Assembly: GCA_964519305.1 (NCBI GenBank)
Contig: CAZFHY010000009.1
Coordinates: 64,001-128,000, forward strand
Direction of reading: 5' to 3'
Length of the DNA: 64,000 nt
Source of the DNA: Candidatus Undinarchaeota archaeon
GTDB lineage: Archaea > SpSt-1190 > JASMDC01
The notes beneath the pieces were generated by a model. That model was not told where the DNA came from. It worked only from the letters and a program-made list of their open reading frames with translations, and searched no databases. The translations under genes were made by a program, and so were the position numbers. Of the stretch, positions 1,713 through 38,737 are shown piece by piece (positions within the stretch are counted from its first letter, which is position 1; each line of letters opens with the position of its first letter).

Positions 1713-2540
1713 ATGGCGGATAGAGAACTGGAGAATAAAAAGACGGTGATCATCACCAAGCACATAACGAAAGAGTACCATCTGGGCAAGGTCATCGTCC
1801 ATGCCCTCCGTGACCTATCTCTCGAGGTGGAGGAAGGCTCGTTCGTTGCCATCATGGGGCCCTCTGGTTCGGGCAAGAGCACGCTCTTGCACATGATCTC
1901 GGCCCTGGACCGGCCGACGAGCGGTCAGGTCATCCTGGAGGACGAGGATATCACTGCTGCCTCGGACCGACGTCTCGCCCGCATCCGGAACAAGCAGGTG
2001 GGCTTCGTGTTCCAGTTCTTCAATCTCTTCCCCACGATGTCCGCCCAGGACAACGTGGAGTTCCCCATGATGATCGCGAACATGTCCGGGAGCAAGCGAA
2101 GGAAGCGCGCAAAAGAGCTCCTGGAGCTGGTCGGCCTCGGCGAACGACGCCACCATACACCGGGTGAGCTCTCAGGCGGACAGCGGCAACGCGTCGCCAT
2201 CGCCCGGGCGCTCGCTAACGATCCACCCGTGGTCTTCTGTGACGAACCGACAGGCAATCTGGACTCGACGGCCTCAAAAGAGATCATGGAGCTCCTGCAC
2301 CGGTTGTGCAAGGAGCAGGGAAAGACCATCGTCATTGTCACGCATGATCCTGCCGTGGGCGCGGTCACGGATCGAATGATCGAGCTGTGCGACGGACAGA
2401 TCAGCAAGGATCAAAAGAACGGCAAAGGTGAGAAACATGACAAGGAAGAGAAGCCTGCAAAGAAACGATCGAAGCGGAAGCGTTCCGCTGTCAAGAAACG
2501 TCCGAAGAAGGCAAAAGGAGGAGTGAAGAATGCAGAATGA
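1713..2540 (+). CDS. ABC ATP-binding protein, LolD/MacB/SalX family
   Basis: [36 protein letters not shown]; Lys-rich tail. Confidence 0.95.
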
Positions 2541-4228: not shown

Positions 4229-5464
4229 ATGGACCTGCTCTCCCTGTCGCTCGCCAACATCGGACGTCGCCTGTTCCGTAACGGGTTCACCGTGGTGAGT
4301 ATCGCCATTGGCATCGCTGCCATAGTCGCGCTCCTGGCCCTTGGTGACGGGATGAAGGCATCGCTGGGCGACCAGCTCGGGCCCATGGCCGCCGACATAA
4401 TCGTCATGCCCAAGTCCAAGGGCGTCCAGCGGGCCCGGGGCGGGCGCATGGGTCACGGTCCTCCCGGCCGGATGCGGTCGTTCGGCGGCGTCTACCCCAT
4501 GGATGAGTCCATCCTCTCAGATCTTCGACGTGTGAACGGCATCAAGTTCGTGGTCCCTCGTTACTCCACCCGCGGTCAGCTCAAGGTGGCGTCGGACGAC
4601 TTCTCTGTATCGGTCATGGGCATCGATCCCGACGCCGAGAAGGACTATGATCAGATACCTGACTTCGCGGAAGGGAAGATGTTCCTCTCTCGTGACCGGA
4701 ACATGGTGGTGCTGGGTGACCGTGTGGTGAGCGACTTCTTCCAGTTCCGCCGCCCCCAGGTCCGCTCCACGGTGGTCATCGAGGGACGCAAGTTCCAGGT
4801 TGCGGGCATCCTTGAGAAGGGCGGACAGGGGGGACCGGGAGGCTCCTATGACAACGCGATTCTCATGAGCCTCGAGGACGCGCGGGAGATCGGGGATCCC
4901 GAGGTGAAGGACCAACTCAGCAACCTCATCGTGCGCGCAACATCCCCTGAGATCGCCGAGGACGTGGCCGAGGACATAGTCAAAGTGGTCGACACGGTCC
5001 AGACCATGGCCCTCTCCACCATGCTGGAGACCATCCAGGAGATCATGGGCACCTTCACGGCCTTCCTTGCAGGCATCGCGGGCATCTCACTGTTCGTGGC
5101 CGCAATCACTATCCTCAACAACATGTACACCGCAGTCATGGAGCGCCGGCGCGAGATCGGCACCATGAAGGCCCTTGGTATGGACAGCAGTCAGGTGCTC
5201 ATCACTTTCTCCATCGAGGCGGGCATCCTCGGTCTCCTGGGCGGCGCCTTGGGCATCGCCATCGGCCTGGGCATCGGCCGGTTCGTGGAGTACATGCGAC
5301 TGGGCGCCCCAGGGCCTGGTGACGCCTACCTCATCCCGGTCTACCTCCCCGAGTACATGGTGGCCAGCGTGGTGTTCGGCGTCATGGTGGCGTTGCTGTC
5401 AGGCCTCTACCCCGCCTGGCGAGCATCGCAGCTCTCTCCTGTAGAGGCTCTGCGATTCGAGTGA
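4229..5464 (+). CDS. ABC permease, MacB/FtsX family
   Basis: N-terminal TM, large external domain, AVMERRREIGTMKALG, YPAWRASQLSPVEALRFE. Confidence 0.93.
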   Translation: MDLLSLSLANIGRRLFRNGFTVVSIAIGIAAIVALLALGDGMKASLGDQLGPMAADIIVMPKSKGVQRARGGRMGHGPPGRMRSFGGVYPMDESILSDLRRVNGIKFVVPRYSTRGQLKVASDDFSVSVMGIDPDAEKDYDQIPDFAEGKMFLSRDRNMVVLGDRVVSDFFQFRRPQVRSTVVIEGRKFQVAGILEKGGQGGPGGSYDNAILMSLEDAREIGDPEVKDQLSNLIVRATSPEIAEDVAEDIVKVVDTVQTMALSTMLETIQEIMGTFTAFLAGIAGISLFVAAITILNNMYTAVMERRREIGTMKALGMDSSQVLITFSIEAGILGLLGGALGIAIGLGIGRFVEYMRLGAPGPGDAYLIPVYLPEYMVASVVFGVMVALLSGLYPAWRASQLSPVEALRFE

Positions 5465-5470
5465 GGCGGC

Positions 5471-6358
5471 ATGAGTATGGCCCCAAACGCACAATGGAAA
5501 GGTTTGGTGTTATCCTTCCTGCTTCTCGCCCTGGTCTGTGCCCAGGACGCTGCGCTCGACTCCTACCACCTCTCAGTTGATGTGCTGGAGAGCGGGGAGG
5601 CCCACTGTACCCTCTCGCTCACGTACCGGCAGGAGGGTGACGAGCTCTCTGGAGGCTATCTGGTGTTGCCCGGGAAGGCAAGCTATGTCTCCGTCACAGA
5701 TAAAGAGGGTGCGCTCAAGTTCGGCTCGGCCGAGGTCGAGAACCTCACAGAAGTGAAGTTCTTGTTCCGCGACATCTTTCTCGATGGTGAGAGGTACACC
5801 GTCTCCGTGGAGTTCTGGACCTTCGACCTTACACGGAAGATGCTGGACGAGTGGGTGCTGGAGGTGGCGTATACCGACCCACCAGAGGTCGATAGCTATT
5901 CGCTATCGGTCACCCTTCCCGAGGGTGCCAAGTACATTCCCGGCGACGAGGTATGGTCTGCGGTGCAGGCCGAAGGGGGCCGTGTCATCCTCTCTACAGA
6001 GGGTGCAATGAGCGATACCATGGTCGCCTACTCCCTCACTTCCGACCGAAATACTGCTCTTCCCGACCTGTTCATGGGCCTGCTTGTATTCCTCGTGGGT
6101 GCGTTCGCAGGCTATCGCATGTTCCGGCAAGAGCCCCCTGCTGAACAGGAGCATGACATCACGCGCCTCTTGGATGACACCGAGAGGAAGGTCTACCAGC
6201 TTCTTTCCACTGACGGCCCGAGCCTGAGACAGTCCGACATCGTCGAGCGCACAGGATTACCAAAATCAACGGTATCTAGAACGCTGGATCGGCTCGAACG
6301 GAAGAAGATAGTGAAGAAGGAGCGCCATGGACGAGAATACAGGATAATACTTGCTTGA
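5471..6358 (+). CDS. Membrane-anchored regulator: signal peptide, external beta domain, TM, wHTH
   Basis: LDDTERKVY...LRQSDIVERTGLPKSTVSRTLDRLERKKIV. Confidence 0.8.
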   Translation: MSMAPNAQWKGLVLSFLLLALVCAQDAALDSYHLSVDVLESGEAHCTLSLTYRQEGDELSGGYLVLPGKASYVSVTDKEGALKFGSAEVENLTEVKFLFRDIFLDGERYTVSVEFWTFDLTRKMLDEWVLEVAYTDPPEVDSYSLSVTLPEGAKYIPGDEVWSAVQAEGGRVILSTEGAMSDTMVAYSLTSDRNTALPDLFMGLLVFLVGAFAGYRMFRQEPPAEQEHDITRLLDDTERKVYQLLSTDGPSLRQSDIVERTGLPKSTVSRTLDRLERKKIVKKERHGREYRIILA

Positions 6359-20080: not shown

Positions 20081-20212
20081 TGGGCCCGACGGGATTTGAA
20101 CCCGCGACAAACAGGTGTCTCCATCTCATTGCCAAGTGGCTCGAAACACCCGATTTCGGGATGCCGCAGTGGCTTAAGAGCCTGCCGCTCTGCCAGACTG
20201 AGCTACGGGCCC
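20081..20212 (-). tRNA. tRNA-Lys(CTT) with 58-nt intron at 37/38 (20117-20174)
   Basis: GGGCCCG acceptor, D arm, GCAGG/CCTGT anticodon stem, TTCAAAT T-loop; CTCT/GGAG central helix of a relaxed BHB. Confidence 0.9.
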
Positions 20213-35206: not shown

Positions 35207-35781
35207 GCACACGCCGCCAGCCCCGGCTCGTAACCGCACACGATGCCCTTGAGCTGAGTGTAGGCAGGGATACCCACCTGCATCCGGTGACAGTTGAACA
35301 CCAGCGTCGGAGTGGCGCGAACGCGGTACTCCCTGCCCTTGGCGGTCGCTTCCTGAAAGCCTTCTTCGCCTATCTCTTCGGGGCACAGGACAGCGTCCTC
35401 CCCGTGGATTCGGATGCAGCGCTTGGCAAGGGTGATCGTATCGCCGAACTCAGCCTCAAGTCGGTCGATGGTGGGCTTGGCATTGATACAGGCAGGACAG
35501 GTCGGACTGTAGAAGTAGTCCACCTGGACCGTACCCGGGACCGTGCAGCCTTCCTGGCCTGCCACGATCTCGAGGCCATGCTCGTCTTTTTCAGGGGCCG
35601 GTCCTCCGCCACCACCGGGGCCTGCCATGAGCAGGAGAGCAGCGAGCACACCACCCATCACGACAGCGAGCACAACCGTGAGGCTCTCACCTCCGCGGGC
35701 TGTAGTAGGCCTAGGTGGTTCTGGTACGTCCTCGATGTCGTCAGGTGGCGTTACCATGGAGCTCACGCCGGTAAAGGACAT
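35203..35781 (-). CDS. Membrane-anchored thioredoxin family protein, paralogue of 29508
   Basis: YFYSPTCPAC, KRCI, YRVRATPTLVFNC. Confidence 0.8.
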   Translation of the reverse strand: MSFTGVSSMVTPPDDIEDVPEPPRPTTARGGESLTVVLAVVMGGVLAALLLMAGPGGGGGPAPEKDEHGLEIVAGQEGCTVPGTVQVDYFYSPTCPACINAKPTIDRLEAEFGDTITLAKRCIRIHGEDAVLCPEEIGEEGFQEATAKGREYRVRATPTLVFNCHRMQVGIPAYTQLKGIVCGYEPGLAACA

Positions 35782-35819
35782 CTGGCCTTAAAAGTCGATG
35801 CCCCACAGGTCACGATCGA

Positions 35820-36023
35820 TTACTCTACCTCGTACCCGGCCTCGACGATAGCTTTCTTCATCGTCGTATCGTCAACGGCCTCGGGATCGTACTTGACCTT
35901 GGCGGCGCCGATCACGACGTCCACATCGTCCACGCCCTCGAGCTCCGTCAGTGCCCGCCGGACGTGCATCACACAGTGGCTGCAGCTCATGCCACCTATC
36001 TTGATCTCTTTCTCTTCCTTCAT
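35820..36023 (-). CDS. copZ: Copper chaperone CopZ-like
   Basis: GMSCSHC, AIVEAGY; 67 aa. Confidence 0.88.
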   Translation of the reverse strand: MKEEKEIKIGGMSCSHCVMHVRRALTELEGVDDVDVVIGAAKVKYDPEAVDDTTMKKAIVEAGYEVE

Positions 36024-36054: not shown

Positions 36055-36810
36055 TCAAATACCTTCGCCCTGGAAGTCACGCTCAATCCGGTCGAGCTCG
36101 CTGTGGCTACCGTTATCGGTCCTGCACACGGCTTTAGCGACGGGCGGCTCACTGTTCCCGTTCTTGGATAGGGTGTGCTCCATTGCTTGGAAGCGGCTCT
36201 CAAGGATACCTATCTCGTGACAGAGCACTTTCACGGCGTCCGCGATAGGATCGGGGAGGTTCCCGTGGTCCAGGTCACTGGCGCGCTTCGGACCATTGCT
36301 CACGATACGCCCCGGGACGCCTACGACCGTGCTCCCGGGAGGTACGTCCTTGATGACCACCGAACCCGCGCCGATGCGGGCATCGTCACCCACGGTAATG
36401 GCGCCGAGCACGGTCGCACCAGTACCGATCACCACATGGTTGCCGATCGTGGGATGGCGTTTCTTTTTCTGAAGGCTCGTTCCACCGAGGACCGCACCCT
36501 TGTACATGAGCACGTCATCGCCGATCTCCGAGGTCTCTCCGATAACGACGCCCATCCCATGGTCGATGAAGAAACGGCGGCCGATGGTGGCCCCGGGATG
36601 TATCTCGATGCCCGTCAGGAACCTCCCGATATGGGAGATGAACCGGGGGAGCACCACCCAGCCCCGCGTCCACAACACATGGACGAATCGGTGGATCCAG
36701 AGCGCGTGAAGACCAGGATAGCATGTGACTACCTCCAACATGTTCCTTGCCGCAGGGTCCTCCCTGATGACGGTGTCCACGTCCTCGCGCAGGGTCTGGA
36801 TGATGCTCAT
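36055..36810 (-). CDS. cysE: Serine O-acetyltransferase
   Basis: [41 protein letters not shown]. Confidence 0.96.
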
Positions 36811-36814
36811 TTCC

Positions 36815-37747
36815 CTACACCTCGATGTTCTCGAAGAGCCAGCCTGAAAGGTATCTCTCTCCCGTGTCTGGAAGTACGACCACGATGAGCTTGTCCTTGC
36901 TGGATGGTCGCTTCGCGACCTCCAGAGCAGCGGCCATGGCGGCCCCCGATGAGATCCCGACGAGCATCCCCTCCTTCTTCGCGAGCGCTTGGGCGGTGGC
37001 CCGTGCGTCCTCGTCGGCCACCTTGACTACCTCGTCGATTATGTCCGTATTGAGCACCCTGGGCACGAAACCGGCCCCGATACCCTGGATCTTGTGAGGA
37101 CCAGGACTACCTCCTGACAGAATGGGGGATGCCTCCGGCTCTACAGCGATCGCCTGGAAGGATGGCTTCCGGGCCTTGATGGCCTCTGCGATACCTGTGA
37201 TGGTACCGCCTGTACCAACGCCGGAAATGAGGATGTCCACCTCACCATCGGTGTCCCGCCATATCTCCTCGGCCGTCGTCCTGCGGTGGATGTCCGGATT
37301 AGCCGGGTTCTCGAACTGCTGCGGCATGAACGACCCGGGAGTCTCTTTCACGAGCTCCTCGGCCTTTTCCACGGCACCCTTCATCCCACCTGATCCGGGC
37401 GTGAGCACGAGTTCGGCACCGAGTATCTTGAGGATCTTACGCCGCTCCATGCTCATAGTGTCCGGCATGGTTAGCACGAGCTTGTAGCCACGTGCCGCCG
37501 CCACGAACGCCAGCGCGATACCAGTGTTCCCGGAGGTAGGTTCGATGAGGGTCGTCCCCTCCTTGATGAGCCCTAGAGTCTCGGCCTTATCGATCATCGC
37601 TGAACCGATGCGGTCCTTGACACTGAATAGGGGATTTCTCGATTCTACCTTCGCGACCACTTTTCCTGGAAGTCCTTCTGCAAGTCGGTTGATACGCACG
37701 AGCGGCGTTCCACCGACCAGTCTCGTCATGTCCTTTGCGATATTCAT
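36815..37747 (-). CDS. cysK: Cysteine synthase A (O-acetylserine sulfhydrylase)
   Basis: SVKDRIG PLP lysine, [31 protein letters not shown]. Confidence 0.97.
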
Positions 37748-37985
37748 CGTAGTTCCACCTTGCCTTTGTCATTGAAGTCGTGTTCGCCCCCGGTCGTCCG
37801 GCCGTCCCTCACGTAGAGGAAAGGTGGGAGATTTGGAGCCAGGGCCCCGGAACCCAAGCGACATAGGGAAGGTGGCTGCCGCATAAGTCCGTGGTCAATA
37901 ACATGTACCGACCTAGGCCCTGACCCCGAAAGGAGCACGCTGTAAGGACATGAATTGTCGGTGACAAAAACGATCCCTCCAGCGC
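37748..37985 (-). ncRNA. Structured 5' leader of cysK, candidate cis-regulatory RNA
   Basis: Nested helices with several G-U pairs that form only on the cysK-sense strand; see findings. Confidence 0.6.
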
Positions 37986-37986
37986 A

Positions 37987-38030
37987 TATAACTATTGTTA
38001 TAGCTTCTGATTTAAATACCTTTTCTTTCG
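37987..38030 (-). promoter_or_regulatory. cysK promoter (BRE/TATTTAAA) with palindrome TATAAC-N4-GTTATA near the expected start site
   Basis: Minus strand gaaaaggTATTTAAAtcagaagcTATAACAATAGTTATA. Confidence 0.7.
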
Positions 38031-38061
38031 GGCGACAGCCTTCCCATTAGGGGGATAAAGA

Positions 38062-38150
38062 TGGAGCCGGGGCTAAGATTCGAACTTAGCTGTGCCGATG
38101 TCTGCCCTTCAGGACTGCAGTCGGCGGCATGGCCACTCTGCCACCCCGGC
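38062..38150 (-). tRNA. tRNA-Cys(GCA) with 15-nt intron (38100-38114), U73 and encoded CCA
   Basis: GCCGGGG/CCCCGGC acceptor, GCCGA/TCGGC stem, CTGC/GCAG BHB helix, TTCGAAT T-loop. Confidence 0.93.
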
Positions 38151-38211
38151 TCTCTTGATACATTCTAGATACCCTCATCTCATGCATCGTCGGTACGGGC
38201 GTACCGACACG

Positions 38212-38295
38212 CATAACAATAGTTTTTGTTCTTGGTACAAAAACCTTTCGATTCACCCGCTGGACCAAAGGGAAACAAATATAACGATGGTTTTT
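38212..38295. promoter_or_regulatory. Two further ATAAC-N4-GTT sites (38212-38227, 38280-38295) in the divergent tRNA-Cys/regulator promoter
   Basis: CATAACAATAGTTTTT and TATAACGATGGTTTTT. Confidence 0.6.
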
Positions 38296-38335
38296 TCGCT
38301 TAACACATTAAGAACTAAGAGGAGTCCGGTCGACC

Positions 38336-38737
38336 ATGAAGCTTCCTTGTGAGATCATCGTATGGTACCTTCTACCAAGCATCCGTGGCGAGCTCGCCAA
38401 GGAACTATCCCGAAGTGGCCTTCGACAGAAGGACATCGCTTCGCGGTTAGGTATCACTCAGCCTGCCGTTTCCCAGTACCTAAAGGACAAACGCGGCCAA
38501 GAGCTCAAGCTCTCGAAGGAGGCTCTCACCAAGGTACATGCTCTGGCAAAGAAGATGGTCGATAAGGTGGACGAGTCGATCGTGCGTACTGAAGTGTGTG
38601 CCATCTGCGCTATCGCTAAGGAGGGGAACCTCCTGTGCGACATCCACCGCAGCCTGGAAAAGGTCCCGGAGGACTGCTCCGTTTGTTCGAAGGAAGACGA
38701 TTGTATGCTCATAGGCGGTGGAGGGGAGGGTATTTGA
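38336..38737 (+). CDS. Archaeal HTH regulator (COG2522-like), Cys-rich C-terminus
   Basis: MKLPCEI, IASRLGITQPAVSQY, CAIC, LCDIH, CSVC. Confidence 0.87.
   Translation: MKLPCEIIVWYLLPSIRGELAKELSRSGLRQKDIASRLGITQPAVSQYLKDKRGQELKLSKEALTKVHALAKKMVDKVDESIVRTEVCAICAIAKEGNLLCDIHRSLEKVPEDCSVCSKEDDCMLIGGGGEGI

Follow-up and report, generated by a model that had tools for sequence, protein, structure and literature searches.

A conserved, structured 5′ leader of the cysK-cysE operon in a Candidatus Undinarchaeota archaeon is a candidate cis-acting RNA element

The cysK-cysE operon of an uncultured Candidatus Undinarchaeota archaeon is preceded by a leader whose first 153 nt are conserved in a congener and are predicted to form three hairpins. 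Our favored reading, which we hold tentatively, is that this region is a genus-specific, cis-acting 5′ leader RNA of cysK-cysE that possibly gates the cysK Shine-Dalgarno (SD) sequence via a conserved loop. Since this first part of the leader is unusually well conserved and folds into hairpins, it probably helps to control the operon. All positions refer to the window, i.e., the whole stretch of 64,000 nucleotides that was analyzed, and the features lie on its minus strand unless stated otherwise.

RESULTS

The leader belongs to the cysK transcription unit.

The two genes of the operon were assigned by their protein families. cysK (36815..37747) encodes cysteine synthase A, with a PALP domain and a TIGR01139 score of 463.8 bits (cut-off, 350.95), and cysE (36055..36810) encodes serine O-acetyltransferase, with a TIGR01172 score of 240.8 bits (cut-off, 210.65). 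The cysK translation initiation region (37745..37772) comprises the SD AAGGTGG (37761-37755) and the ATG (37747-37745). Further upstream lies an archaeal-type promoter (38010..38032), in which a purine-rich BRE-like element, GAAAGAAAA, is followed by a TATA box, TATTTAAAT (38018-38010). This promoter is 91% identical to that of the congener, with both of its flanks at 50-59%. From the start of the TTTAAA hexamer to an ATG at 37987 there are 29 nt, which is also the commonest spacing of start codons from TATA-like hexamers genome-wide, and transcription of the leader is predicted to start at about 37987. Most mRNAs of this genome are leaderless or carry a short leader; cysK has an SD and therefore needs a 5′ UTR. 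No terminator-like site was found in 37600-38350, no T-run follows the conserved core, and inspection by eye of the region between core and SD revealed no AT-rich promoter box in either species; a second cysK promoter is not visible. The core sits inside the cysK transcription unit.

A 153-nt core is conserved without a coding signature.

Two distinct leader sequences (n=2) were available for comparison, that of the window genome (G000) and that of its congener G001, the sole distinct relative. BLAST of the leader against 41 genomes of relatives, G000 included, returned G000 and G001 only, and a metagenome scan with a codon-degenerate pattern of the invariant block returned two contigs, each matching G001 at 100% identity across 520 nt. 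A covariance model of the leader found one copy in each of the two genomes. In all 17 genomes of the phylum examined it gave one other match, at 13.5 bits (E 0.28), and in 80 loci with the closest cysK homologues its matches were limited to E values of 2.4 and 5.6. The core is thus present as a single copy in G000 and in G001, lacks relatives elsewhere in the genomes and loci searched, and keeps its synteny with cysK in G001, the one relative.

Within the core (37835..37987), 127 of 153 positions are the same in G001 (83% identity), without any gap, and the first 34 nt are invariant. No more than 3 nt separate the beginning of the conserved block from the ATG at 37987. Identity to G001 drops to 49% at 37800-37834 and 50% at 37988-38009, the segments flanking the core being 49-59% identical, and third codon positions of cysK are 56% identical; neutral sites of the two species are about 50-56% identical. 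The stretch on the 3′ side of the core (37800..37834) is an unconstrained spacer.

The conservation is not that of a protein-coding sequence. The 26 differences between the two cores fall 11/8/7, 8/7/11 and 7/11/8 by codon position in the three phases; by comparison, 137 of 191 differences in cysK and 24 of 37 in a neighboring gene for a 67-aa HMA protein are at third positions. The core is without coding signature. A 52-codon ORF that begins with TTG, with GGAGG ahead of it, was considered as a coding sequence and failed the codon-position test. An earlier note on this DNA had proposed a structured, probably cis-acting leader of cysK-cysE, and this part of its proposal is supported by a gap-free block without coding phase, with strand-specific folding and with no terminator behind it.

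Three predicted hairpins are shared by both species, within different global folds.

The folding energy of the leader was then compared with that of shuffled sequences. RNAfold gave the 241-nt leader a minimum free energy (MFE) of -96.1, against -81.8 ± 4.5 for the shuffles (z, -3.15), of which 2 in 200 were as good. For the core of the window, the z score was -5.3 on the sense strand, with none of 300 shuffles as good, and +0.34 on the antisense strand; the sense strand of the G001 core scored -3.0. Folding of the leader thus exceeded chance, and the strand specificity agrees with the point made in the earlier note that many of its pairs are G-U.

Hairpins P1, P2 and P3 were predicted independently in both species. 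P1 (37937..37985) is a long irregular 5′ hairpin with the helices GCGCUG/CAGCGU, AGGGA/UCCUU and UUGUC-ACC-GACAA (z, -3.7 in the window and -4.3 in G001). Two of its 16 pairs show one-sided compatible changes between window and G001 and the others are invariant; an extra terminal pair, U15-G39, is found in the window MFE structure only and is lost in G001. P2 (37893..37913), GGUCGGUA-CAUGU-UAUUGACC, includes two G-U pairs and has a z score of -3.1 in the window and -3.4 in G001. All eight P2 pairs are invariant, the sole change being in the loop, and the motif is unique in the genome. P3 (37858..37882) consists of GCGGCA/UGUCGC with a 13-nt loop. Three of its six pairs carry one-sided compatible changes and none is broken, and the 11-nt core of the loop, CCACCUUCCCU (37875-37865), is invariant; its CCACCU(U) is complementary to the cysK SD. 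Other copies of CCACCTTCCC and GGAGGGATC in the genome are mostly inside long ORFs.

For P1, P2 and P3 taken together, a subset picked after the data had been seen, one of 30 pairs is broken in G001. Mutants generated at random, matched to it in the number and type of substitutions, lose 5.85 ± 1.9 of these pairs (0.75% of 2000 were as good). In the a priori test, which used the full MFE structure of the window, 8 of 51 pairs are broken in G001, where random mutation would be expected to break 9.9 ± 2.2 (P 0.25), and by its own MFE G001 barely outdoes the random mutants (P 0.10). Compensatory covariation was not seen: between the two distinct sequences, a two-sided change occurs in none of the 51 pairs and a one-sided compatible change in 10, with pairing broken in 8.

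The global folds differ. The window sequence reaches -71.3 in a three-way junction and -36.6 in the G001-type fold, the corresponding values for G001 being -35.0 and -56.4. Such a difference between two species is unusual for a ligand-binding aptamer. The earlier note had described this junction, closed by a 13-bp stem made of GGGGTCAGGGCCT (37927-37915) and GGGCCCTGGCTCC (37847-37835), and an outer stem made of TTTTTGTCA (37970-37962) and TGACAAAGG (37771-37763). All four segments are present on the minus strand, and the 13-bp stem, the three-way junction and its two hairpins also appear in an independent RNAfold prediction for the window. As a conserved element, however, the junction did not stand. 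The stem is strong in the window only: 6 of its pairs do not vary and 4 have one-sided changes, but G001 breaks the remaining 3, and there the 3′ strand reads GAGTTCTGGCCCC. All four pairs at the base of hairpin 2 of the junction are broken in G001 as well, and the junction is there 21 kcal/mol worse than the alternative fold. The outer stem is possible, yet energetically disfavored: its formation would raise the energy above the MFE by 7.9 kcal/mol in the window and by 17.7 kcal/mol in G001.

A promoter-proximal palindrome suggests a protein repressor.

An operator-like palindrome, ATAAC-N4-GTTAT (37988..38001, no strand assigned), is located between the TATA box and the start, just beyond the range covered by the earlier note. 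The pattern occurs four times in the genome. One copy (G000:C5:124119) is the identical 14-mer at the identical 12-nt spacing from GGTATTT, and in G001 the arms have changed symmetrically to ATAC/GTAT. Moreover, ATAACTATAGTTAT occurs twice upstream of cysK in Methanobacteriota (loci L034 and L045), one of the two loci also encoding a 42%-identical homologue of an HTH and Cys-rich protein that is encoded divergently in the window (38336-38737). The position of the palindrome next to the promoter suggests that protein-mediated transcriptional control is already present at the cysK-cysE operon.

One alternative is that the whole conserved region acts as DNA, its invariant stretches being transcription-factor sites for repression or for an elongation block, with the HTH and Cys-rich protein as candidate factor and the RNA folds incidental. 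The palindrome that abuts the start would fit this, as it recurs at another promoter of this genome, with equal spacing, and also at two Methanobacteriota cysK promoters. So would a further palindrome within the 34 invariant nt, TTGTC-ACC-GACAA, and the 8-mer GTCGGTAC: counting its complement too, three copies lie within some 300 nt here, a triple seen nowhere else in the genome. However, near-continuous conservation over 153 nt far exceeds the length of an operator, and it begins at the predicted transcription start rather than straddling it. The folding energy is strongly strand-specific in the window, P2 retains two G-U pairs that would be mismatches in DNA, and the GTCGGTAC inverted repeat is imperfect in G001. 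We thus regard an explanation at the DNA level as improbable. The GTCGGTAC copies form an inverted repeat upstream of the tRNA gene and occur once in P2. TTGTC-N3-GACAA was also considered as the operator of a regulon, and it is not enriched in the genome (8 matches versus 6.9 expected).

Predicted masking of the cysK SD is ordinary for the genome.

Our preferred reading, a cis-acting leader RNA, directs attention to the cysK ribosome-binding site. The sequence AGGTGGAAC-N-ACGATG at the cysK start is conserved in G001; the 3′ end of the 16S rRNA of the genome reads GGATCACCTCCT, and SD-like words peak genome-wide at -12/-11. The SD at 37761-37755 and two copies of its exact complement CCACCTT, at 37875-37869 and 37827-37821, are present as had been described. 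The first copy, in the P3 loop, is invariant, but the second, in the spacer, reads CCGGCCC in G001, so that only one of the two proposed anti-SD elements is conserved. The window as a whole contains 21 matches to CCACCTT, against 6.4 expected over its 64 kb, an excess that probably reflects, for the most part, how common AAGGTGG is as an SD on the opposite strand.

The mean predicted probability of being unpaired was 0.025 for the cysK SD in the window and 0.21 in G001. In the G001 ensemble, the P3 loop pairs with the SD with a probability of 0.63; in the window, the predicted partner of the SD is the nonconserved second CCACCUU and not the conserved P3 loop. Among 150 other AGGTGG-led genes in a context of the same size, the median probability of being unpaired was 0.215, and 10.7% were as masked as cysK of the window. 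Predicted masking of the cysK SD is thus ordinary for this genome, with the window at the 10th percentile and G001 at the median. The duplex of the P3 region with the cysK initiation region is similarly unremarkable, at -17.0 versus a mean of -17.1 over 1931 other initiation regions. A long-range pairing of the 5′ segment AUCGUUUUUGUC with GGUGGAAC-N-ACGAU of the initiation region was rejected, as this duplex is weaker than that with most other initiation regions.

That the P3 region pairs about equally with 1931 initiation regions is also what might be seen if the core were a stable small RNA, expressed from its own gene or derived from the 5′ UTR, that acts in trans or stabilizes the mRNA and is not a sensor for cysK. 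The core is a discrete element with neutral sequence on both sides, its own promoter and compact hairpins; its conserved pyrimidine-rich single strands CUCCUUUC and CCACCUUCCCU might base-pair with other mRNAs at their SD regions. We nevertheless give this possibility only a small chance, because neither a terminator-like site nor a T-run follows the core, cysK would be left with no visible second promoter, synteny with cysK is kept in G001, and the element is single-copy without relatives in the genomes and loci searched.

A short ORF opens the predicted transcript.

The ATG at 37987 begins a leaderless-type short ORF of 24 codons plus TAG (37913..37987), MRWRDRFCHRQFMSLQRAPFGVRA, with a UGU cysteine codon at codon 8. 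In G001 the ORF is open, with the same length and stop codon, and a second cysteine is found at codon 17. Its nine nucleotide differences fall 4/3/2 by codon position, and six are non-synonymous versus one synonymous, indicating that the peptide is not under purifying selection.

This arrangement could serve as a ribosome-mediated attenuator, in which the transcript begins with AUG and slow cysteine decoding, triggered by scarce Cys-tRNA at UGU codon 8, refolds the leader and shifts cysK translation, in a manner like that of mycobacterial polycysteine leaderless short ORFs. There, according to the preprint describing them, stalled ribosomes block an RBS-sequestering duplex (bioRxiv 10.1101/834739). 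Similarities to that system are the predicted 5′-terminal AUG, a short ORF with a cysteine codon, a structured spacer and an SD-led cysteine-metabolism gene. The 29-nt spacing of the ATG from the TATA hexamer is the modal leaderless one, and ORF length and stop codon are the same in G001. UGU is the minor cysteine codon (4627 TGT versus 12644 TGC in long ORFs), and it lies within the 34 invariant nt, in a U-rich strand, UUUUUGUCA, that has two alternative partners, GACAA at 29-33 or UGACAAAGG beside the SD. Furthermore, arrangements of TATA box, ATG, short ORF and downstream gene were found 11 times in the genome, this locus among them; yet none of the other 10 short ORFs has the look of an amino-acid leader.

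Several further observations speak against attenuation or set the leader apart from the mycobacterial system. The window ORF has one cysteine codon and G001 has two that are not adjacent, whereas the mycobacterial criterion, as given in the preprint, is at least two consecutive cysteine codons (bioRxiv 10.1101/834739); the host here is, moreover, an archaeon. Masking nt 1-40 (a ribosome at codon 8) or nt 58-90 (a ribosome at the stop codon) in silico left the SD unfreed in both species. The UGU-bearing strand can pair beside the SD, at a cost of 7.9 to 17.7 kcal/mol, and the duplex of the 5′ 40 nt with the cysK initiation region (-12.2) is weaker than most (mean, -15.9). An ORF that stays open over 75 nt at 88% identity corresponds to chance expectation, and leaderless initiation might be impeded by the P1 stem, whose first base is the G of the AUG. 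On balance, we consider this attenuator unlikely.

The leader is not a T-box.

The earlier note had further likened the leader to a T-box that senses cysteine status via tRNA-Cys. The adjacent tRNA gene on which this comparison was based is real. ARAGORN with introns allowed recognized it as tRNA-Cys(GCA) (38062..38150), interrupted at 37/38 by a 15-nt intron and with its CCA encoded, and in a 131-nt slice the Rfam tRNA model gave it 40.2 bits; default ARAGORN and wide Rfam scans overlooked it. The gene is located upstream of the leader and outside it. Its orthologue in G001 was recognized by neither ARAGORN nor the Rfam tRNA model and is degenerate.

The search for known RNA families was negative. 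No T-box (RF00230) was found at E<=10 on 37500-38400, on 37735-37995 or on G001 L007:1450-1950, and no riboswitch or other Rfam family matched the leader at E<=10, including in a 261-nt slice scanned with laxer filters. The 901-nt Rfam scan had also overlooked the 40-bit tRNA, which makes the 261-nt rescan the better test.

A T-box-like switch would use specifier/anticodon and UGGA-NCCA contacts with tRNA-Cys and an acceptor mimic in the junction helix. Some features are compatible with this. The UGGA within AAGGUGGAAC, which is conserved in G001, complements the U73-CCA end of tRNA-Cys, and a UGC triplet, the only one conserved, lies in a linker (core positions 51-53). The tRNA-Cys gene adjoins the leader in the window genome and in G001 alike, and the organism has CysRS, SepRS and three tRNA-Cys genes. 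However, UGGA is simply part of the SD and is not in a bulge. The GGUGGAAC stretch resembles part of the T-box consensus cited in the earlier note, and this likeness lies in the SD itself. The tRNA-Cys-like 11-mer CCCTGGCTCCA does match the 3′ end of the adjacent tRNA at 10 of 11 positions, as had been claimed, but the likeness does not extend to G001, where a manual count on the alignment against that species' own tRNA-like end gave 5 of 11. In the window the mimic, CCCTGGCTCC(A) in the 3′ strand of the junction stem, is base-paired (its UCC included) and not a free end. Neither the junction helix nor the second anti-SD is conserved, the adjacent tRNA gene is degenerate in G001, and a terminator/antiterminator pair is absent. 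No stem I or specifier-type internal loop was found in P1, P2 or P3, the hairpins common to both species. Thus, although the leader resembles a T-box (RF00230) in preceding a cysteine-related operon beside a tRNA-Cys gene, it differs in having no covariance-model match, stem I, specifier loop or antiterminator. We conclude that the leader is not a T-box, and a T-box-like tRNA-Cys switch appears extremely improbable.

DISCUSSION

Taken together, our favored reading sees a roughly 240-nt 5′ leader of the cysK-cysE mRNA whose first 153 nt (37987-37835) would constitute a functional RNA element. It would comprise three conserved hairpins, whose loops and linkers are conserved too, and would most likely influence the operon's expression in cis. 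The most plausible mechanism would be control of ribosome access. The invariant P3 loop may pair with the AGGUGG of the cysK SD, and stabilization or opening of the upstream hairpins would then set the share of mRNA that can be translated. A metabolite, a protein or a ribosome positioned on the 5′-terminal short ORF could act as the trigger. The data show a sharply bounded conservation, no coding signature, strand-specific folding energy, a single copy per genome and a place within the cysK transcription unit; the transcription start, regulation by the element, masking of the SD as its mechanism and the nature of its signal are inferred.

We take SD-sequestering bacterial leaders and riboswitches, for example those of the SAM-II and SAM-III/SMK types, to be the appropriate systems for comparison. 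As in these, a structured 5′ UTR precedes a sulfur-amino-acid gene, and a conserved pyrimidine stretch of the leader is exactly complementary to the downstream SD. In contrast to these, the leader is archaeal, has no Rfam match, folds differently in two species and is predicted to mask its SD only to an ordinary degree. The fluoride riboswitch of Thermococcus kodakarensis is likewise a cis-acting archaeal leader RNA, from which the present one differs in sequence and gene context; according to a 2021 paper (PMC8241225), no other natural archaeal riboswitch had by then been determined experimentally. In the TBDB paper (PMC7778990), a term search located "archaea" in the reference list only.

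We regard it as doubtful that this leader is the first natural archaeal one to tie an amino-acid biosynthesis operon, at the RNA level, to the supply of that amino acid. It might do so as a new class of cysteine or sulfur-metabolite riboswitch or by archaeal ribosome-mediated attenuation, in which case the leaderless 24-codon cysteine ORF would remodel the hairpins that present the anti-SD loop to the cysK ribosome-binding site. Either form of control would act atop a protein repressor at the adjacent palindrome.

With a thin base of two species, the leader is a lead and not a discovery. RNA-level metabolic control is barely documented in archaea, and full-text searches on archaeal riboswitches and on cysteine and cysK turned up no described archaeal cysteine leader among the titles listed, which makes the conserved cysK-cysE leader a concrete and testable candidate. 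The apparent repressor/operator pair, for its part, has counterparts at methanogen-lineage cysK promoters. With three tRNA-Cys genes, CysRS and SepRS, and this apparent repressor/operator pair, the locus could show layered transcriptional and post-transcriptional control of cysteine supply in archaea.

Organization of the cysK-cysE locus

On the minus strand of the window, a BRE/TATA promoter (TATTTAAAT, 38018-38010) is followed by a palindrome of 14 bp (38001-37988), by the ATG (37987) that marks the predicted 5' end of the leader, and by a noncoding stretch of about 240 nt that runs from this ATG toward the Shine-Dalgarno sequence (SD) AAGGTGG (37761-37755). Then come cysK (ATG at 37747) and, 3' of it, cysE, both on the minus strand and above the cut-offs of TIGR01139 and TIGR01172, respectively. 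A conserved 67-aa HMA-domain (MxCxxC) gene (35820-36023, minus strand) lies directly downstream of cysE and probably shares its operon; in the congener G001, about 1.25 kb of additional sequence separates a thioredoxin-like gene from the HMA/cysE block (locus L089, reverse complement 4871-6225, versus window 35726-35826). A tRNA-Cys(GCA) gene that contains a 15-nt intron and encodes its CCA is found on the minus strand at 38062-38150. It was called by ARAGORN with introns allowed and scored 40.2 bits against the Rfam tRNA model in a small slice, having been overlooked by default ARAGORN and wide Rfam scans. A second intron-bearing tRNA, tRNA-Lys(CTT) (20081-20212, minus strand), was likewise called by ARAGORN with introns allowed, and its score against the Rfam tRNA model was 54.8 bits. 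Divergent from tRNA-Cys/cysK, a plus-strand gene (38336-38737) for an HTH protein whose tail is Cys rich precedes, on the same strand, those for a NifS-type and a SufS-type cysteine desulfurase. The host genome is archaeal, with an archaeal SSU rRNA and three genes for TBP, a family that matched only the four archaeal control genomes.

Conservation of the leader core

The leader is single copy in its own genome, and BLAST over 41 related genomes detected it only there and in G001 (76% identity, 298 nt). A metagenome scan returned two leader contigs, both identical to G001, and a search with a covariance model built from the core gave no credible match in 17 genomes of the phylum or beside the 80 nearest cysK homologues, most of them from bacteria. 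As no further distinct relatives were found, the comparative evidence consists of two distinct sequences, which are far apart at neutral sites, since cysK third codon positions are 56% identical.

Identity between the two rises from 59% in the tRNA trailer to 91% in the BRE/TATA element and drops to 50% from the TATA box to the start. It reaches 83% in the core (the first 153 nt of the leader, 37987-37835), of which the first 34 nt are invariant, then falls to 49% at 37834-37800 and is 70 to 80% from there to the cysK start codon. There is no gap from the core through the cysK start codon, the sole nearby gap lying in the tRNA trailer. Judged by identities of 83% inside versus 50% and 49% in the flanks, the core is a discrete constrained element, the 5' edge of which falls at the predicted transcription start. 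Across the genome, the distance from TATA-like hexamers to the start codons that follow them peaks at 28 to 31 nt (mode, 29), and the ATG at 37987 sits exactly 29 nt from such a hexamer.

Two open reading frames (ORFs) cross the core, namely, a 24-codon ATG ORF beginning where the transcript is predicted to start and a TTG ORF of 52 codons after GGAGG. A peptide-coding reading was rejected, as neither ORF shows purifying selection on its peptide. The 26 differences in the core are distributed by phase as 11/8/7, 8/7/11, and 7/11/8, and the 24-codon ORF carries 6 nonsynonymous versus 1 synonymous change; third positions account for 137 of 191 differences in cysK and 24 of 37 in the HMA gene. 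Thus, the constraint acts on nucleotides.

Structures shared by the two species

All of the sequence strings listed in the earlier note are present where it placed them, and RNAfold on 37745-37985 returned the 13-bp stem, three-way junction, and both hairpins that it had drawn by eye. This region folds better than dinucleotide shuffles (minimum free energy [MFE], -96.1 kcal/mol versus -81.8 ± 4.5; z, -3.15), with 2 of 200 shuffles folding as well. For the core, z was -5.3 in the sense orientation (0 of 300 shuffles) versus +0.34 in antisense; the structure is thus strand specific, as had been argued from its G-U pairs. We consider it quite unlikely that the conservation is due to DNA-level sites. 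The leader observation is real and partly more than chance. A proposed outer stem is possible, although its energy exceeds the MFE by 7.9 kcal/mol in the window (17.7 kcal/mol in G001).

Folding of each species alone gave the same three elements. P1, a long 5' hairpin domain (core positions 3 to 51), has 2 one-sided compatible changes, and the one pair of its MFE version in the window that G001 loses is the terminal U15-G39. In P2 (GGUCGGUA-CAUGU-UAUUGACC), all 8 pairs are invariant and the sole change is in the loop. P3 (GCGGCA/UGUCGC) shows 3 compatible changes and a 13-nt loop with the invariant core CCACCUUCCCU. The three-way junction was unsupported: of the pairs in its 13-bp stem, 4 change compatibly and 3 are broken in G001, all 4 pairs of the lower half of hairpin 2 are broken, and G001 prefers an extended P2 with separate hairpins (three-way junction versus G001-type fold, -35.0 versus -56.4 in G001 and -71.3 versus -36.6 in the window). 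No pair carries a two-sided change between the two species. Compared with random mutants carrying as many transitions and transversions, G001 keeps the window's MFE structure as a whole no better than chance (8 pairs broken versus 9.9 ± 2.2; P = 0.25); P1, P2, and P3 together, a subset picked after seeing the data, are better preserved, with 1 of 30 broken versus 5.85 ± 1.9 (P = 0.0075).

The P1 loop and 3' strand ACCGAC could pair with GUCGGU of P2 (6 bp, invariant). In addition, three copies of GTCGGTAC or its complement lie within about 300 nt (38188-38207, 37904-37911), the only such triple in the genome, as an 8-bp inverted repeat 38 to 57 nt upstream of the tRNA-Cys gene and one copy in P2.

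Predicted pairing of the cysK SD

The 16S rRNA 3' end is GGATCACCTCCT, and AGGTGG is an ordinary SD in this genome. Of the two CCACCTT copies put forward as anti-SD sequences, the loop copy is conserved, whereas the second falls within the neutral spacer and is CCGGCCC in G001. The SD is predicted to be paired in both species (probability unpaired, 0.025 in the window and 0.21 in G001), its predicted partner in the window being the nonconserved copy. Among 150 other AGGTGG-led genes, these values fall at the 10th and 49th percentiles, respectively, and the complementarity of the P3 region to the cysK initiation region does not exceed its complementarity to 1931 other such regions. Because both results are unexceptional, gating of the SD by the leader is plausible rather than demonstrated.

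T-box and tRNA-Cys likeness

Three scans, including one of a 261-nt slice, gave no T-box match at E ≤ 10, and no terminator-like hairpin was found at the leader. The words taken as T-box-like are the SD itself, and the supposed mimicry of tRNA-Cys drops from a 10/11 match in the window to 5/11 in G001. A T-box-like switch is therefore extremely improbable.

The G001 orthologue of the tRNA-Cys gene (locus L007, about 1815-1903, minus strand) is 85% identical to that of the window, and ARAGORN and the Rfam tRNA model both failed to call it. Mismatches affect its acceptor, anticodon, and T stems, its T loop is changed, and its 1-72 pair is altered on both sides from G-C to A-U. The window's genome (G000) carries three different tRNA-Cys(GCA) genes (C8:128272-128345, C17:11619-11691, and the window copy), of which one has an intron and two encode the CCA. 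CysRS and SepRS (G000:C8:121014-122423 and G000:C1:432479-434032) both score above curated cut-offs, as do cysK and cysE, and several parallel routes to Cys-tRNA are thus indicated.

A possible cis-acting leader

We tentatively favor the reading that the leader is a cis-acting RNA of cysK-cysE, because the core, judged from the sequence, shares a transcript with cysK, is under constraint on the RNA strand, and carries an invariant loop complementary to the SD. The general idea of a cis-regulatory leader is reasonable, with two species as its basis, but the T-box likeness, tRNA-Cys mimicry, three-way junction, and double anti-SD are not supported. We likewise consider it quite unlikely that the core is an independent or stabilizing small RNA. 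In a related and rather unlikely variant, translation would begin at the 5'-terminal AUG, and the leader would be remodeled by a ribosome on the 24-codon ORF. The minor UGU Cys codon of this ORF does sit inside the invariant block, and a 5'-terminal AUG short ORF with a Cys codon in the leader recalls the mycobacterial polycysteine leaderless ORFs, in which, as far as described in bioRxiv 10.1101/834739, stalled ribosomes block a duplex that sequesters the ribosome-binding site. However, that family is there said to require at least two consecutive Cys codons, which counts against the variant, as does in silico masking, which leaves the SD unexposed. According to PMC8241225, the fluoride riboswitch was, as of 2021, the sole natural riboswitch of archaea to have been determined experimentally, and we found no description of an archaeal cysteine leader or archaeal T-box in the literature, judged from titles and abstract openings.

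Promoter palindrome and HTH protein

The palindrome ATAAC-AATA-GTTAT fills the space between the TATA box and the start. An identical 14-mer is found at a second promoter of this genome (G000:C5:124119-124132), where it again stands at a 12-nt spacing from GGTATTT and lies ahead of an ORF for an 82-aa Cys-rich zinc-ribbon protein, and in G001 (L007:1742-1753) both arms are changed symmetrically to ATAC...GTAT. Moreover, ATAACTATAGTTAT is present in two copies upstream of cysK in each of two Methanobacteriota loci (L034:789 and 844; L045:1356 and 1405). The HTH protein is of HTH_3 type, with a C-terminal CxxC...C...CxxC...C part, and is 86% identical in G001; its Atlas neighbors are uncharacterized archaeal HTH_3 clusters. 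A Methanobacteriota MAG encodes a 42% identical homologue (L045:3469-3822) roughly 1 kb away from its cysK, and a similar palindrome lies in front of this homologue (L045:3390). The protein is a candidate redox, Fe-S, or cysteine-sensing regulator, and ATAAC-N4-GTTAT probably serves as the operator for a conserved repressor of a cysteine regulon. Together, they look like a repressor/operator pair for cysteine genes that is common to different archaeal phyla. With such an apparent pair at cysK, the leader, if regulatory, would therefore be an additional layer.
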